From a virus, in the IMG/VR virus record IMGVR_UViG_3300025168_013179, positions 33,787 to 97,786 of that record: DNA of 64,000 nt. One strand, written 5' to 3'. The notes beneath the pieces were generated by a model, which made no database searches, was not told the DNA's origin, and was given only the letters and a program-made list of their open reading frames with translations. Made by a program: the position numbers and the translations under genes. This document shows, piece by piece, positions 32,930 through 46,211 of the stretch; position 1 is the stretch's first letter; each line of letters starts with the position of its first letter.

Positions 32930-33864
32930 TGCCTTAATGTTTTTGCTAATCTAAATTCCTTTTCTTCAAACATAGCTGGGATAAGCATATTATGAGATGC
33001 TCTAACAGGGTTAATATCTAAACCTCCTCTTCTAGTATATAAACATGCTACCATAAGCTGCTCTGGTTGAAAAGCATCAGTTAAATGCTTGTAAACCATT
33101 TCACAAATTTCTTCGTGGAAGTGACTTACGGTTCTATGTGAAACTATATACTTTGCCAATGAATCTGCTGTAGGTAAATTTTCACCTTTTATCTTAATGT
33201 ATACATCACCCCAATCTGGTTGATTCGTAACTCTACAGTTAGATCTTAAAAGGTTAGATTTTAACCTTAATTCAGGCCATGCTAAATTCTCTTTTTTAGC
33301 TTTATATGATTTTAACTGAGAGGCATCGGATTGAAATGCTGTAAAGTCTATCTCATCTAGATCTACTATATCTCCTAAGTCTTTATAGTTCATAAAAGAT
33401 AAAGGTTTTCCTTCTTCTTCACTAGCATAAAAAGAAACAGTTGTATTAGTTTCAAGTAACTCATCTAAATCTCTCTTTACTCTTGCTTCAATACCGCTAA
33501 TACAGTCTCTAGCATTATCTGCTATACGAGTCATATTAAATGAATTTAAATAAAGTTTTATTGACTTAGATTCAACGTGATATTCACTATTTGAAGGACA
33601 AACTATTTTAAGCATACCTGCTACCGGTTGACCTTTAGTAGTGATAGCTGATACTTCATAACAGTTCCAAGTATCTACTCCTACAAAACTGTCTGAAGTT
33701 AGTCCGTAACCTTCTCTGTTTAAGTATCTTGGTACTTTAACTAATAATTCTGGTGAGTATGTATCTTTATACCCATCACCGCCTACTTTTCCTAAATGTT
33801 TAGAAGCAATATCTACTACTTCTTGATAATTTTTAACGTCTGCATTTAACCCTTTTTCTTCCAT
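32926..33864 (-). CDS. queF: preQ0 reductase QueF (bimodular)
   Basis: VESKSIKLYLNSF, SNCRVTNQPDWG, FHEE and YTRRGGLDINP motifs. Confidence 0.95.
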   Translation of the reverse strand: MEEKGLNADVKNYQEVVDIASKHLGKVGGDGYKDTYSPELLVKVPRYLNREGYGLTSDSFVGVDTWNCYEVSAITTKGQPVAGMLKIVCPSNSEYHVESKSIKLYLNSFNMTRIADNARDCISGIEARVKRDLDELLETNTTVSFYASEEEGKPLSFMNYKDLGDIVDLDEIDFTAFQSDASQLKSYKAKKENLAWPELRLKSNLLRSNCRVTNQPDWGDVYIKIKGENLPTADSLAKYIVSHRTVSHFHEEICEMVYKHLTDAFQPEQLMVACLYTRRGGLDINPVRASHNMLIPAMFEEKEFRLAKTLRQ

Positions 33865-34416: not shown

Positions 34417-34968
34417 TTATCGAAGACTCAAATAATCATTAAGAAAATTAACCCATAAACCTAAGCTTACTCCTTTTAATTTATCATAAACTTCATCAAG
34501 AGTAAAATCATCATTAGGTATACTAGCTTCAGCAATTACTTTACCTTCATCTACTCCTGCTGTTACTTTATGTATAACTGATCCGATCTCTTCATATTCA
34601 CGTTCATAAGCTTTTATTTGAGGGTCTTTACCTTTAAGGTCAGGGTACTTAGTAATTAAACCAGGATGACCATTATACAACTTAACTCCTTCTGTAACAA
34701 AGCCTGGTATAATTCTTAACCAACCATGAAGAGTAACTAAAGCATCAGGAAAATATTGTAAAACATCTAAATAGTTTTCCTTATCTGGGTAGTTTTTAAA
34801 TGTCCAGTAACTTCTTTTTTCTATTCTAGGATCTATAGTTCTTAAGTGTGTTGGCCTCTCATTAGTTATAATTCTATCAGGCCATCTCCCTATACTTTCA
34901 GCTATATCCGCTATTTCCGCTCCAGTTTGACTAAAGAACGCTATCCACCTTATGCCTTCCGTTTGCAT
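34417..34968 (-). CDS. dpdN: PurN-like formyltransferase, likely DpdN (preQ1 formylation)
   Basis: FSQTG, LHGWLRI, NGHPG and H.V...VDEG motifs; between dpdA-like gene and queF. Confidence 0.75.
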   Translation of the reverse strand: MQTEGIRWIAFFSQTGAEIADIAESIGRWPDRIITNERPTHLRTIDPRIEKRSYWTFKNYPDKENYLDVLQYFPDALVTLHGWLRIIPGFVTEGVKLYNGHPGLITKYPDLKGKDPQIKAYEREYEEIGSVIHKVTAGVDEGKVIAEASIPNDDFTLDEVYDKLKGVSLGLWVNFLNDYLSLR

Positions 34969-35749
34969 ACCATCTAAATTTTTGAATATTATTTTTAACT
35001 TTATCTATGTCAATCTCTTCTAAGTCCATATTAATTAGCTCATGTAACTTTTGAGATTCTTTACTCCATAAACCTTCATCCCCGTACGTAATACCTTTTA
35101 TTCCGTGTACTATTGGATTAGAAGTATCTAGGGAATAAATCCATTTGTAATCTGCATGCTTATAGAATGCAAACTCTTGAGGTAACCCACATCCTAGTAA
35201 GTGATGAGGTTTATTAGTGTTTATCACACCGTCTTTTAATAGATCTCCTAATAATTTAACTCTTCCTAACATCCAACTTACATATTTGTTAGGATGCGGG
35301 ACAGAAACGCTATAATAAGAATAGTCAAAAGATATAGCAATCATATCAACTTCTTCCATATCCATAAATTGATAACATCTTTTTATCTCTTCATAGTCTT
35401 TTCCTTGGACTACTCCGATACTCTTTCCATGTAACCTTGGATAGTCTCTTTTAAAATCTTGACATTGACCTATAGTAAGAGCCATATTCTCTAAAGCATC
35501 TGGGATTATATACCATGAGGCTTTTAGACGGTTAACCCATTGAGCAAATCTTTCCGCTTCAAATGCTTCTTCTAACTCAAATATAGAATTATCTAATATA
35601 ACTTCTCTTCCTTTTTTTATAGCTCTTTCAAAAGTATCTCTATATCTAGGATTTTCTTCTAATAGGTGAACTAATGCATAATCATAATCTGTAAACCTCT
35701 GGACTTCATCAAAGATATCTAAAGGTGCTTCGTGTGCTATTTTAATCAT
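34931..35749 (-). CDS. dpdA: TGT-fold 7-deazaguanine DNA-modification enzyme (DpdA3-like)
   Basis: ILDNSIFE, PD, GVVQG, HLLG and SLDTS motifs of TGT/DpdA barrels. Confidence 0.8.
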   Translation of the reverse strand: MIKIAHEAPLDIFDEVQRFTDYDYALVHLLEENPRYRDTFERAIKKGREVILDNSIFELEEAFEAERFAQWVNRLKASWYIIPDALENMALTIGQCQDFKRDYPRLHGKSIGVVQGKDYEEIKRCYQFMDMEEVDMIAISFDYSYYSVSVPHPNKYVSWMLGRVKLLGDLLKDGVINTNKPHHLLGCGLPQEFAFYKHADYKWIYSLDTSNPIVHGIKGITYGDEGLWSKESQKLHELINMDLEEIDIDKVKNNIQKFRWYANGRHKVDSVL

Positions 35750-37640: not shown

Positions 37641-38354
37641 TTAATGTTTACATATTGAAGCTAATTCGATATTTTTATAAAACTCTGCTTTAGCTGAGTC
37701 TTCATCTAAGAATGCTCCTGTTAATTTAGCTGTTTGCATTGAAGCTCCTTGATGTTTGACTCCTCTACAACTAACACAGTTATGAGTAGCTGAAATCATC
37801 ACAGCGACGCCTAAATTACCTTCACATATCTTGTTTACTGCATTATGTATTGCTACAGTAAGTTGTTCTTGTATAGCACCTCTTCTACCGAATTGCTCTA
37901 CGATTCTATTAAGCTTTGATAACCCAACTACTTTACCCTCAGCTGAAGCAATATATGCTATGCTTACATTACCTCCTATAGTTTGATGATGATGGGAACA
38001 CATTGAATGAACTGGTATGTTACTTTCTTGTACTATTCCATCATATCCATCAGAAGGAAAAGCTGTGATCTTATCTAAAGGTTCATATCTTCCTTTCCAT
38101 AAATCATTAACGTAAGCTTTTGCTACTCTCCTAGGAGTATCAGATGAATTTGGATCTCTTCTCCATTCACAGCCTAATTCATCTAAAAATAATCCAAATT
38201 TATGAGCTGCTTTATTAATAATGTCTTCTTTTTCAAATTCAGTTAGTCTTGCTTCTTCACCTTCTATTCTCTGTTTATTATATAGTTGAGTAGATATACC
38301 ATTTGCATACCCAGGCTCTACTAACTCAGTACCTTCTATAAATTTTTTTGCCAT
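37641..38354 (-). CDS. folE: GTP cyclohydrolase I
   Basis: TPRRVAK, SMCSHH, GLSKL, QE and H.C...RG motifs. Confidence 0.95.
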   Translation of the reverse strand: MAKKFIEGTELVEPGYANGISTQLYNKQRIEGEEARLTEFEKEDIINKAAHKFGLFLDELGCEWRRDPNSSDTPRRVAKAYVNDLWKGRYEPLDKITAFPSDGYDGIVQESNIPVHSMCSHHHQTIGGNVSIAYIASAEGKVVGLSKLNRIVEQFGRRGAIQEQLTVAIHNAVNKICEGNLGVAVMISATHNCVSCRGVKHQGASMQTAKLTGAFLDEDSAKAEFYKNIELASICKH

Positions 38355-38388
38355 TTAGTTTGTTTTTTTATGAGGTTCTACGACTCAT
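38355..38388 (-). ncRNA. preQ1-I riboswitch-like aptamer in folE leader
   Basis: AUGAG-UCGUAGAAC-CUCAU-AAAAAAACAAA-CUAA then AUG. Confidence 0.8.
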
Positions 38389-38397
38389 TATTAATAT

Positions 38398-38427
38398 AAT
38401 ATAAGAATAATATTTTAATTATCCAAA
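38398..38427 (-). promoter_or_regulatory. Bacteroidetes-type -33/-7 promoter for folE
   Basis: TTTG-N18-CTTATATT. Confidence 0.7.
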
Positions 38428-38837
38428 TAATCTTGTTTAGTATTACTATCATTTCTCTCCCATGGAAATACTAACCATCTATCATCTTCTATTTTTTCTC
38501 CGTAGTATTCTGGGATAGTTTCTGATATGTATCTCATACATAAAGTAGCTGTAATAAATCTAGGAGCATAGTCTTTCATAGTGACTCCTGAATCACATAT
38601 ATCGTCTACTAGTAATATATCTTCGTTTTTGAATCTAAGATCATGTCGACCATACTTCTTAGCTTCGTCGAATGGAATGTAGGCTACACCTAATTTATGA
38701 CTTAACATGATAGCAGGTATTAGGCCACCTCTAGGAATACCTGAGATATATCTTAATTTTTTATCCTTTAATCTTTCTGCTAATTCTTCTATTTGATCGT
38801 CGACCCATTTCCAGGACATAAAAACCTTTTCTTTCAT
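38415..38837 (-). CDS. Purine phosphoribosyltransferase (Gpt-like)
   Basis: GIPRGG, VDDICDSG.T and WLVFPWE motifs. Confidence 0.85.
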   Translation of the reverse strand: MKEKVFMSWKWVDDQIEELAERLKDKKLRYISGIPRGGLIPAIMLSHKLGVAYIPFDEAKKYGRHDLRFKNEDILLVDDICDSGVTMKDYAPRFITATLCMRYISETIPEYYGEKIEDDRWLVFPWERNDSNTKQDYLDN

Positions 38838-39947: not shown

Positions 39948-40156
39948 TAGACTTTAATATACTTCTCTAATATTTCTAATCTTTCGTGTGCTGATGATAA
40001 TAATTTTAATGCTTCTTCACAGTTATCCCAATAGTCTTTTGTGGAATGATCTCCTATTCCAGCAGGGTGAGATGTTAAGATAGTGAAACTTGCTAATGCT
40101 TTTGCTTTATCAGCTTCTGCTTGTTTTTTTAAAAATTGGTAGACGTGTTCTTTCAT
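39947..40156 (-). CDS. Hypothetical phage protein
   Basis: GIGDHS motif; coupled ORF. Confidence 0.65.
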   Translation of the reverse strand: MKEHVYQFLKKQAEADKAKALASFTILTSHPAGIGDHSTKDYWDNCEEALKLLSSAHERLEILEKYIKV

Positions 40157-40171
40157 ACTTAATTGTTTATA

Positions 40172-40963
40172 TTATACTTCTCTTTGATCTTCAAATGCTA
40201 TAATGTGCGGTCTCCAGGTCATTCTATACCCGTTATCCCTAACCCAGTCGAATAGTATTGGGTATGATTTATATAATGCCGCTCTTGAGTCCCCTGCTGG
40301 CATAAACCAGACTTTATCTTTAGGAGCATCAAGAAGGGATATACATTCCATAATTTCCTTTAATGAATTGTTGTCTTTACCGTCCCAAACAGGTTTGAGG
40401 TGGTAATCTGAATGATATTTAATACTTTTCTTAATAGCCTCATAGTTTAATCTAAACCTATTATGCGTTTTAATCATCATCTCTGCTCTCCTGCCCTCTA
40501 ATTTCTGTCCATTAGGTAAAGTAGCTCCATCTTGAGGAACTGAATTACTGAACTTAGGGCTAATACTTAGTAGATTAATAGGGTAATCAGTTTCTAAGTA
40601 ATGAGAACCTTCTGTCTCGATAGTTATAAATATGTCTCTTTCTTTAGCAAAGTGAGTTAATTCGTTAACTAATTTAGGATGCATAGTCGGTGAACCTCCA
40701 GTTAACATCATTTCTGATATTTGAGGATTATCGTCATACATTTTTACTATGTCGTTAAAAGACCATTTGCCTTTTTCCGGATGAATACTTGTATACCAAC
40801 TATCACACCACCCTCCTTCTCCAAAAAAACATCTATGAGTACAGCCAGTAGTTCTAATTACAACTGTAGGGTACCCTGCTCTGGAACCTTCTGACTGTAC
40901 TGCTGTATAAATCTCTACTATCGGTAGATTTTTATTATAATCTTCAATTCGACCCAGGGACAT
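40172..40963 (-). CDS. queE: 7-carboxy-7-deazaguanine synthase (radical SAM)
   Basis: Q.EG..AG.P.V.IR..GC, WCDS, TGG.P, ETEG and SPK motifs. Confidence 0.92.
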   Translation of the reverse strand: MSLGRIEDYNKNLPIVEIYTAVQSEGSRAGYPTVVIRTTGCTHRCFFGEGGWCDSWYTSIHPEKGKWSFNDIVKMYDDNPQISEMMLTGGSPTMHPKLVNELTHFAKERDIFITIETEGSHYLETDYPINLLSISPKFSNSVPQDGATLPNGQKLEGRRAEMMIKTHNRFRLNYEAIKKSIKYHSDYHLKPVWDGKDNNSLKEIMECISLLDAPKDKVWFMPAGDSRAALYKSYPILFDWVRDNGYRMTWRPHIIAFEDQREV

Positions 40964-41456
40964 ATATGGCTGCGTTTTTTCCGTGTTCTCTAAATTCTAC
41001 TTTTGCAATTTTAACTCTTCCTTTTGTTTCCTTAAGCACAAATTTATTTACCTTATTATAAACAAACTCTGCGAATCTTTCTGCTCCTACAGCATCTATA
41101 ACTCTAACTTGAGCTACTCCTACTTCTCCCATTTTTAAAAAAGAATCTTTAAAAGGATCATCATTAGCTACTATAAAGGTATGATCGAACATATAATCAA
41201 ACCAATCTTTAGGAGACTTACCTCCTATTTTAGTCTTTGCTCTTTTCATTCCGCCAAAATCCCATACCCAGTTTCTTTCGTCTAAATCTCCTTCAAACCA
41301 TAATTTAAAAGATATACCGTACCCATGTAAAAATCTACAATGAGTACCATCTGCTTTCCACTGTCTAAATACTGTAGAAAATCCATCAAAAACCTTAGTA
41401 GACAAAAATTTAGGTTTTTGGATTGCTTTTTTTGATAATTTACTATGATATACCAT
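40944..41456 (-). CDS. queD: 6-carboxytetrahydropterin synthase
   Basis: HCRFLHG, DFG, FDH and AE motifs. Confidence 0.9.
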   Translation of the reverse strand: MVYHSKLSKKAIQKPKFLSTKVFDGFSTVFRQWKADGTHCRFLHGYGISFKLWFEGDLDERNWVWDFGGMKRAKTKIGGKSPKDWFDYMFDHTFIVANDDPFKDSFLKMGEVGVAQVRVIDAVGAERFAEFVYNKVNKFVLKETKGRVKIAKVEFREHGKNAAIYVPGSN

Positions 41457-41773
41457 TATACTAGTTCTTCTCCAATTCCTACTAATTCTGCTAAAAATAA
41501 TCCAATAAACCCTATTTCAATCATACCAAAGAAACCAAAAGCACAAGCTGCTAGTCTAATTGCTGATTTAATAAAGCTAATTCTCTGATGTAAAAAAGCA
41601 TCAGGTAAATCTGTGCTAGTTGAGTTTTTAATTTCTACCAATTCTAACTTCAGATCATTAAGCTGAGTTTGATATGTGATATTCTTTGATTGTCGACCTT
41701 CAAGGTCTTGTAATTCGGCAGTTACATCTTTATCGGTGATGTGTATCTGTTCGCCTTTTCTAAATATAGCCAT
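41456..41773 (-). CDS. Hypothetical protein with C-terminal TM hairpin; first gene of the queD-queE unit
   Basis: Coiled coil followed by hydrophobic C-terminus; stop overlaps queD start. Confidence 0.65.
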   Translation of the reverse strand: MAIFRKGEQIHITDKDVTAELQDLEGRQSKNITYQTQLNDLKLELVEIKNSTSTDLPDAFLHQRISFIKSAIRLAACAFGFFGMIEIGFIGLFLAELVGIGEELV

Positions 41774-41806
41774 TTTCCGTGTTTTTAAAGTGGTGCTGTG
41801 ACACTA
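41774..41806 (-). ncRNA. Second preQ1-I riboswitch-like aptamer
   Basis: UAGUG-UCACAGCAC-CACUU-UAAAAACA-CGG-AAA then AUG. Confidence 0.7.
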
Positions 41807-41825: not shown

Positions 41826-41855
41826 AAGATACGATAAATATTTATTATATCCAAA
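41826..41855 (-). promoter_or_regulatory. Bacteroidetes-type -33/-7 promoter for the queD/queE unit
   Basis: TTTG-N18-CGTATCTT. Confidence 0.7.
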
Positions 41856-46177: not shown

Positions 46178-46211
46178 TTTGCCAGGTATTTTGAGCGTAT
46201 AGGCAAACGCT
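46178..46211 (-). ncRNA. Candidate H-type pseudoknot in queC leader
   Basis: AGCGU/ACGCU and UUGCC/GGCAA interleaved. Confidence 0.5.

Follow-up and report, generated by a model that had tools for sequence, protein, structure and literature searches.

What is the short hairpin with an A-rich tail that stands directly before the start codon of a phage folE gene, and does it sense a metabolite? The question is raised by a stretch of virus DNA of 64,000 nucleotides (nt), positions 33,787 to 97,786 of the 97.8-kb IMG/VR virus record IMGVR_UViG_3300025168_013179 (GC ~0.32), the stretch being referred to below as the window. Riboswitches for prequeuosine 1 (preQ1) are described in bacteria, where they govern the provision of queuosine for tRNA. 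An earlier note on this DNA nonetheless saw a class I preQ1-type architecture in the folE leader, and our analysis supports that claim through covariation of the P1 stem, the bases of the presumed ligand pocket, the location of the motif, the co-occurrence of QueC and QueF, and bacterial relatives linked to QueT genes. Covariation, pocket bases, location, gene content, bacterial relatives and a conserved promoter all fit this reading, and the element is probably a small version of the class I, type II preQ1 riboswitch that is peculiar to phages. It probably serves as a phage-only sensor that curbs production of the modified guanine destined for phage DNA.

The hairpin and tail ahead of folE

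Read on the minus strand from 38388 to 38355, the folE leader consists of a hairpin and an A-rich tail before the AUG, exactly as the earlier note had it, and the 9-nt loop at 38383-38375 does start with U and end with C. The parts of the element and the gene behind it are as follows.

38384-38388, minus strand: 5' strand of stem P1, AUGAG, read from the sequence; its inner 4 bases form the conserved stem
38375-38383, minus strand: 9-nt loop UCGUAGAAC, read from the sequence and from relatives' leaders; L1 is U38383 and C38382, the P2 5' strand runs from G38381 to G38378, and L2 is A38377 and A38376
38375, minus strand: C38375, the last loop position and putative specificity base, by comparison with known preQ1-I aptamers
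38370-38374, minus strand: 3' strand of P1, CUCAU, from sequence and covariation
38363-38369, minus strand: L3, an A-run of 7 A, predicted to lie in the P1 minor groove and to contact the ligand through its last A
38359-38362, minus strand: putative 3' strand of P2, CAAA, with C38362 opposite G38378 and A38359 opposite U38380 (the conserved register)
38355-38358, minus strand: spacer CUAA between the P2 3' strand and the AUG, not conserved among relatives
38352-38354, minus strand: folE AUG, directly after the element at 38355-38388
37641-38354, minus strand: folE, encoding GTP cyclohydrolase I of 237 aa (Pfam GTP_cyclohydroI PF01227, 4.5e-42)

Two details of the proposed fold needed correction. 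The P1 of 5 bp holds for the folE copy in the window; family-wide the stem is 4 bp, with the outer A-U pair kept in 5 of 37 sequences. The pseudoknot stem P2 had been drawn between loop UAG and tail CUA, ending right at the AUG. This pairing was rejected as the conserved P2, since relatives do not keep the CUA (38358-38356) among the 79 variants listed, and the register that is conserved ends 4 bases upstream of the AUG.

Recurrence and covariation among related phages

Taken singly, the folE-leader sequence is not beyond chance, and its significance comes entirely from its relatives. FolE relatives in IMG/VR are 67-86% identical to the window FolE; 80 FolE-anchored contigs were collected from this database and their folE leaders read unfiltered. 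A hairpin stands directly before the AUG in 46 of these 80, with stems that differ and a loop that stays the same. A FolE-independent pattern scan of IMG/VR then enlarged the set to at least 79 distinct variants among the matches listed, and counts out of 79 below refer to these. The pattern scans fixed loop positions U1, A5, G6, A8 and C9 and required at least 3 A before the tail C, so that the unbiased evidence for these bases is the unfiltered reading of folE leaders together with the matches of a covariance model (R1, below).

The stems fall into the types AUGAG/CUCAU, GGAG/CUCC, GGUG/CACC, AGUG/CACU and UGUG/CACA. Across 37 distinct sequences both variable pairs of P1 are paired without exception (A-U 15, U-A 12 and G-C 10 at one; U-A 24 and A-U 13 at the other), and two G-C pairs, the closing one included, are invariant in all 37. 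Covariation in related folE leaders had been proposed as a check, and P1 does covary: its score is 0.458 vs 0.125 in shuffles, a value reached by 0 of 500 shuffles.

Loop and tail are constrained as well. The loop is 9 nt long in 78 of the 79 variants, and U1, A5-G6 and A8-C9 are constant in every recognisable copy, with one outlier, locus L079, in the unfiltered folE leaders. All 79 variants have at least 4 consecutive A ahead of the tail C. Among features that the scan left free, the distance from the 4-bp stem to the tail C is 7 nt in 64/79 (range 6-9), and every copy has an A right behind the tail C. The fourth loop base (N9) can pair with the base three positions after the tail C in 60/79, against a shuffle mean of 49.6, and 2/5000 shuffles reach this number, the sequences being related; where N9 is C its partner is G (10/10), where it is G the partner is C or U (4/4), and the pair types seen are C-G, G-C, G-U, U-A and U-G. 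Neighbouring loop-tail registers gave no pairing signal in the same 79 variants. The loop G and the tail C never vary and thus carry no information on their own pairing.

The outlier L079 (2943-2990, plus strand; the same leader as L219, ~598-645) is a divergent folE leader, GGUG UCGUAGUUC CACC, where 'UC', a mark of type I, stands ahead of the P1 3' strand. A long tail follows, ending in AAAACAAAGGA with a Shine-Dalgarno-like GGA. R1 does not match this leader, which may represent a degenerate copy or a variant of its own.

A motif confined to 7-deazaguanine genes

The covariance model R1 was built from the phage sequences and used to search the window and 83 loci, 585 kb in all, on both strands at E<=1. 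It returned 65 matches, every one of them at the folE leader or at a leader 2.2-2.8 kb upstream that belongs to a queD-queE operon. Within the 98-kb record R1 gives 46.2 and 44.9 bits for two copies and 13.9 for the next best match. The second copy and the genes behind it are these.

41778-41805, minus strand: second copy, AGUG UCACAGCAC CACU UUAAAAA CACG; R1 44.9 bits
41774-41777, minus strand: 4-nt spacer after the second copy, followed by the AUG at 41771-41773
41456-41773, minus strand: orf105, no assigned function, the first gene behind the second copy
40944-41456, minus strand: queD
40172-40963, minus strand: queE

In the second copy C41798 and G41778 would form the covarying P2 pair. 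As a side observation, copies of the AGUG type could also form an alternative hairpin (GUGU, a 4-nt loop and GCAC; 41793-41804, minus strand; -2.4 kcal/mol) as a competitor of P1, in which the loop G and the specificity C would be buried; copies of the folE type cannot form it.

The genes directly behind the 79 variants are folE in 27 cases, an orf105-family gene heading queD-queE in 42, queD in 3, queE in 2, and a lipoprotein-like open reading frame (ORF) heading the same operon in 3. Thus 77/79 precede a gene of the 7-deazaguanine pathway or the head of its operon, and the other two have no usable downstream ORF that could be read. They are phage genes serving the modification of DNA rather than that of tRNA. 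The orf105-family gene, the commonest directly behind the aptamer, always heads queD-queE. Its products are virus-only small proteins of 61-107 aa, many with an N-terminal motif resembling 'ELYDRExR'; the family has no Pfam, NCBIfam or PHROG match, and ESM Atlas gives only viral hypothetical clusters. At three loci (L125 9084-9677, minus strand; L206 9683-10276, plus strand; L128 1127-1582, plus strand) the gene at the operon head is an ORF of 197 aa that carries a lipoprotein-type signal, MKKLLL...C, and in the copies ahead of this ORF N9 is a G paired with a tail C.

The GC-rich element in the queC leader (46178-46211, minus strand) gave no R1 match, and queC is therefore not under the same aptamer. 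A looser pattern without the stem requirement yielded a recurrent 'UUAGAGAACAC...AAAAAC', which was set aside: it is coding sequence, the conserved 3' end of queD where it overlaps the start of queE, and not an RNA motif.

Comparison with bacterial preQ1-I aptamers

In class I preQ1 (preQ1-I) aptamers the specificity C lies directly before the P1 3' strand and is preceded by A in types II and III or by U in type I, and the ligand's other edge is read by U6 of L1 and an L3 adenine; in type II the L1 U reads N9 and the L3 adenine before the P2 cytosine reads N3/N2 (PMC11625349). The closing P1 pair, a G-C, is the floor of the pocket, and its G contacts the aminomethyl group via O6; a canonical pair forms the ceiling and an A-rich L3 lies in the P1 minor groove (PMC11625349). 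At the corresponding positions every recognisable phage copy has the closing G-C, the L1 U, AC, an A before the tail C, an A-rich L3, and the loop G and tail C that would make up the ceiling. The AC lies at 38376-38375 and is present in every hairpin-bearing folE leader read unfiltered except L079. In the T. tengcongensis aptamer the counterparts of loop U1, AG and AC of the phage element are U6, A10-G11 and A14-C15, and the conserved P2 register matches that of this aptamer as well (G11-C30, C9-G33).

For direct comparison, 150 Clostridia genomes were searched with the Rfam PreQ1 model RF00522, whose gathering score is 39 bits. Of 13 matches at E<=0.001, one lies above this score; the other 12 (L224-L235) score 28-33 bits, among them L227 and L228 at 30-31. 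L227 reads CCGGG UCGCAGCUAC CCCGG UUAAAAAAAC AAGG and L228 GGCGG UCGCAGAAAC CCGCC UAAAAAAAC AAGG, and each stands before a QueT gene (PF06177, 4.9e-24 and 1.1e-43). Several other Clostridia matches precede membrane-protein-like ORFs. The Rfam cut-off, which is an operational threshold and not a structural definition, thus appears to miss many genuine preQ1-I aptamers, including most of the QueT-linked Clostridia ones sampled.

Type II, to which the T. tengcongensis and B. subtilis queC aptamers also belong, is the closest known group. Between these QueT-linked type II aptamers and the phage element, loop and tail differ by a single L2 base. Set beside the loop of L228, the window folE copy has one A missing, C9 changed to U and the paired G changed to A. 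The two groups share a P1 closed by G-C, a loop with UCG-N-AG at its start and AC at its end, the layout of a putative H-type pseudoknot, an A-run followed by C-A-N-G/A, a candidate P2 register of G:C plus N9:x+3, and a tie to 7-deazaguanine metabolism; as in the translational type from T. tengcongensis, the 3' end of the aptamer lies in the translation initiation region. They differ in size: characterised type II aptamers have 5 bp in P1 and 10-12 nt in the loop, whereas the phage P1 is mostly 4 bp (5 in the window folE copy) and the loop 9 nt, and this shortening is why the element is classed as a variant. L3 is 6-7 nt in the phage copies vs 8-9 nt, the core 28-30 vs 33-34 nt, and the RF00522 score 9-22 bits vs 30-31 for the bacterial QueT-linked aptamers. 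The phage tail has no Shine-Dalgarno sequence, and the phage element stands before folE and queD-queE for DNA, the bacterial ones before queCDEF, queT and yhhQ for tRNA. The phage element is therefore likely to be a type II preQ1-I aptamer minus one L2 base and usually one P1 pair, with a proportionally shorter L3.

Type III of E. coli, the smallest and most stringent class I consensus and nearly confined to Pseudomonadota, offers a second comparison (PMC11625349). Type III aptamers are small, have 'AC' at the specificity base and act on translation, with the initiation signal buried in P2 (PMC11625349); the phage element has the small size and the AC, and is predicted to act in the same way. 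What sets type III apart is a conserved UU behind the 5' strand of P1, together with a loop rich in pyrimidines and an AAGG Shine-Dalgarno sequence that pairs in P2; the phage loop is of the UCGUAG type, and the phage element has no Shine-Dalgarno sequence.

Gene content and the identity of the ligand

Among cultured phages the record is nearest to the Flavobacterium phages vB_FspM_immuto and Cellulophaga phage phiST. On the minus strand of the window the gene order is orf105, queD, queE, a small ORF, ferredoxin, an NS-type endonuclease, a Gpt-like phosphoribosyltransferase and folE; after folE come an ORF without assigned function, a cupin, a MazG-like pyrophosphatase and the following gene.

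34931-35749, minus strand: DpdA3-type DNA transglycosylase, 69% identical to the annotated immuto DpdA, downstream of folE

The record encodes QueF further on, and queC at ~46160, the latter from a reading of its N-terminus. The gene content of the immuto phages has been described, as has formyl-preQ1 as the DNA base that replaces G in them (PMC10516641). The window phage has the same gene set and is a close relative, with FolE ~80% identical between the two; the published account of the immuto pathway mentions neither riboswitch nor regulation (0 occurrences of 'riboswitch' or 'regulat' in PMC10516641, from 2023), and the RNA element is an addition to it. Three cultured immuto phages carry the folE copy with an identical loop and the stem GGAG/CUCC. 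They are the only GenBank phages in which a folE copy was found, and immuto has no copy heading the small-ORF operon.

QueC and QueF are both present in all eight motif-bearing genomes checked (the window record, immuto, G003 and G006-G010), which can therefore make preQ1. Phage phiST stops at 7-carboxy-7-deazaguanine (CDG) and makes 7-deazaguanine in its DNA (PMC10516641). It has no QueC, and the R1 search found no motif copy in it; two weak matches of 22 bits were discarded, one being a terminator hairpin with an A-run and the other an unrelated hairpin. A complete phage genome with QueC and without QueF (n=1) has no motif either. In this small sample of related phages, gene content is consistent with preQ1 as the ligand.

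It is possible, if unlikely, that the same fold has shifted to another ligand, be it preQ0, formyl-preQ1 or a 7-deazaguanine nucleotide supplied via the neighbouring Gpt-like phosphoribosyltransferase, the shortened L2 having reshaped the pocket. L2 is indeed one base shorter than in the QueT-linked aptamers, the phosphoribosyltransferase gene lies directly upstream of folE, these phages end at formyl-preQ1 in DNA (PMC10516641), and type II binds preQ0 only ~17-fold more weakly than preQ1 (PMC11625349). Yet the bases that read the Watson-Crick and minor-groove edges of the ligand are unchanged, as is the G that contacts the aminomethyl group, and the single complete genome with QueC and without QueF, which would be expected to make preQ0, is the one just noted to lack the motif.

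Slightly less probable than a shifted ligand is a protein-binding translational operator, in which a phage or host RNA-binding protein would recognise the loop and the A-rich tail with no sensing of a small molecule. A conserved loop on a covarying stem near the AUG is the layout of phage translational operators, the small conserved orf105-family protein is encoded behind the motif more often than any other, and Rfam does not recognise the RNA. An operator would, however, owe to coincidence the match of all conserved positions to the ligand pocket, that of the tail to L3 and P2, and the near-identity with QueT-linked aptamers; a hairpin operator does not need a P2 register that covaries, and immuto combines a folE copy with the absence of any copy heading the small-ORF operon.

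The motif was also sought outside phage records. A search of 185,579 species genomes with an exact pattern whose stem was fixed as GWG/CWC gave 9 loci, of which 8 were chance matches and 1 a phage-like contig, L213 (NYWG01000135.1, 5.9 kb, from a metagenome-assembled genome labelled 'Verrucomicrobiales'). This contig carries both aptamer copies and the phage promoter boxes, and is almost certainly a mis-binned fragment of a Flavobacteriia phage. The motif is thus found only in phage contigs, the species-genome pattern being limited to GWG/CWC stems.

Promoter, transcript and expression platform

The promoter that the earlier note placed at 38398-38427 is present with both boxes, and its layout recurs in front of nearly all related copies; its parts and the counterpart ahead of the second copy are listed here.

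38424-38427, minus strand: -33-like box TTTG of the folE unit, overlapping the 3' end of the Gpt-like phosphoribosyltransferase gene
38398-38403, minus strand: -7/-10-like box TATATT of the folE unit, 9 nt upstream of P1
41826-41855, minus strand: promoter of the second unit, TTTG at 41852-41855, 20 nt, then TATCTT at 41826-41831

The arrangement TTG, ~20 nt, TATATT, a promoter in the Bacteroidota style, is conserved ahead of nearly all 79 variants, 8-20 nt before P1, and the TATATT box likewise occurs in relatives' folE leaders that have no hairpin. As far as sequence can tell, the aptamer therefore behaves as an inserted module of 28-30 nt, placed between promoter and start codon, and the element would start at, or a few bases after, the predicted transcription start of the folE unit.

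Between the tail C and the AUG lie 4-13 nt (mode 6), a distance that the pattern scan left free. No terminator fits into this interval, and none is predicted on the minus strand in the region of the element; control would therefore act at translation or mRNA stability. A contig assembled from a marine metatranscriptome, identical to the window, spans 38176-38385 at a depth of 2-3, ending 3 nt into the 5' strand of P1. A second marine metatranscriptome contig, this one of a close relative and likewise at a depth of 2-3, spans 38302-38508; the end of the phosphoribosyltransferase gene, the promoter and the aptamer all lie on it. DNA carry-over may account for either contig; otherwise the aptamer may lie internally in read-through transcripts.

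A hairpin at the extreme 5' end of the predicted transcript could also be a constitutive leader, guarding the mRNA terminally against decay while the A-rich tract serves initiation without a Shine-Dalgarno sequence, and nothing being switched. The hairpin is weak, and A-rich leaders are said to favour initiation in Bacteroidota. A stabiliser, however, needs neither an invariant 9-nt loop nor an L3 of fixed length, nor an invariant tail C-A and a covarying loop-tail pair, and it would hardly be confined to three pathway genes in 585 kb; we consider this explanation very unlikely and retain that of a preQ1-I variant.

Points that weigh against a preQ1-I variant

Several observations speak against assigning the element to the preQ1-I class. 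The most direct is the outcome of the Infernal search with the Rfam PreQ1 model that had been suggested as a check: RF00522 aligns to the folE copy end to end at 14.0 bits, far below the gathering score (E=2 in 251 bases, E=0.18 for the 98-kb record), and does not return the second copy at E<=10. No phage variant tested scores above 21.8 bits. True copies range from 9 to 22 bits and chance matches in these genomes from 13 to 20, so that scans by Rfam score or E-value do not discriminate and were discarded as a test. Among the chance matches are one at 40115-40156 (13.2 bits), inside coding sequence and driven by its A-run alone, and one in a related phage (G008:119428, 19.8 bits), an unrelated and different small hairpin. 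In the other direction, R1 gave no significant match to the type II aptamers in the 13 Clostridia loci. That neither model recognises the other group is due to the differences of 1 nt in L2 and 1 bp in P1.

Further objections concern the structure itself. The P1 hairpin has a predicted stability of -2.5 kcal/mol (z=-1.6), and 20 of 200 shuffles fold as well as the hairpin alone, a marginal stability. A 4-bp P1 with a 3-nt L2 is shorter than in any characterised aptamer. Only five stem types occur, in related phages, and the independent changes behind the P1 covariation are correspondingly few; the second P2 pair is mismatched in 19 of the 79 variants. In the folE copies TATATT ends 8-10 nt before P1, which leaves a transcription start inside P1 possible. 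Finally, the folE leaders of several relatives and of one fragment with QueF (58% complete) have no element; since it is missing from an incomplete record that encodes QueF, the element is not obligatory.

Chance resemblance, or an inverted-repeat operator acting at the DNA level, is nevertheless exceedingly improbable: the window alone gives an Rfam E of 0.18 per genome and a similar score arises inside coding sequence, but at least 79 variants carry compensatory stem changes, a DNA operator would conserve its half-sites and not let them covary, and the asymmetric conserved loop and tail fit the transcribed strand.

A model for feedback in phage DNA modification

Messenger RNAs of Bacteroidota initiate on unstructured A-rich leaders and not by Shine-Dalgarno pairing, as work in Flavobacterium johnsoniae indicates, and such leaders reportedly favour initiation throughout the phylum. 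Against this background we infer a ligand, a fold and a direction of regulation. Free preQ1 (possibly preQ0) that accumulates would pair with the last C of the loop and stack between the closing P1 G-C and the pair of loop G and tail C. The A-run would dock in the P1 minor groove, and an H-type pseudoknot would close 4 bases before the AUG, inside the ribosome footprint. The folded tail would tie up the A-rich tract, the ribosome would lose its landing site, and less FolE would be translated; the twin copy would have the same effect on the first gene of the queD-queE unit.

The purpose of such a circuit would be feedback on the drain of GTP into the pathway that replaces G in phage DNA. Whenever free preQ1 exceeds consumption by DpdA and the formyltransferase, FolE and the QueD-QueE unit would be turned down and GTP spared. 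The complete proposal comprises a phage-only preQ1-I miniature of 28-30 nt, translational OFF control in mRNAs without Shine-Dalgarno sequences, twin feedback on the first three steps of the pathway, and the first riboswitch for DNA hypermodification; on balance we favour it as a whole.

Implications

A full-text search (riboswitch, preQ1, phage, deazaguanine) found no paper on a phage riboswitch for a DNA-hypermodification pathway, most subscription papers being outside its reach; the earlier note, too, was aware of none. A 2024 review of preQ1 riboswitches does not mention phages (PMC11625349). What sequence comparison supports as new is a variant of an established riboswitch class that is restricted to phages and has a novel biological role: a preQ1-I pocket in stripped-down form, missed by Rfam and placed on genes that supply the pathway by which all guanine of the viral DNA is replaced. 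The proposal is testable in the immuto phages, which carry the element, are in culture and have DNA of known chemistry; the RNA, moreover, is short enough for synthesis.

If the element binds preQ1, phages balance anti-restriction modification of their DNA against GTP supply by means of a metabolite-sensing RNA. At 28-30 nt it would be smaller than the 34-nt aptamer called the smallest known, and the lower size limit of a natural aptamer would move down. It would also be a concrete example of how a riboswitch can act where, as in this phylum, translation initiates without Shine-Dalgarno pairing.

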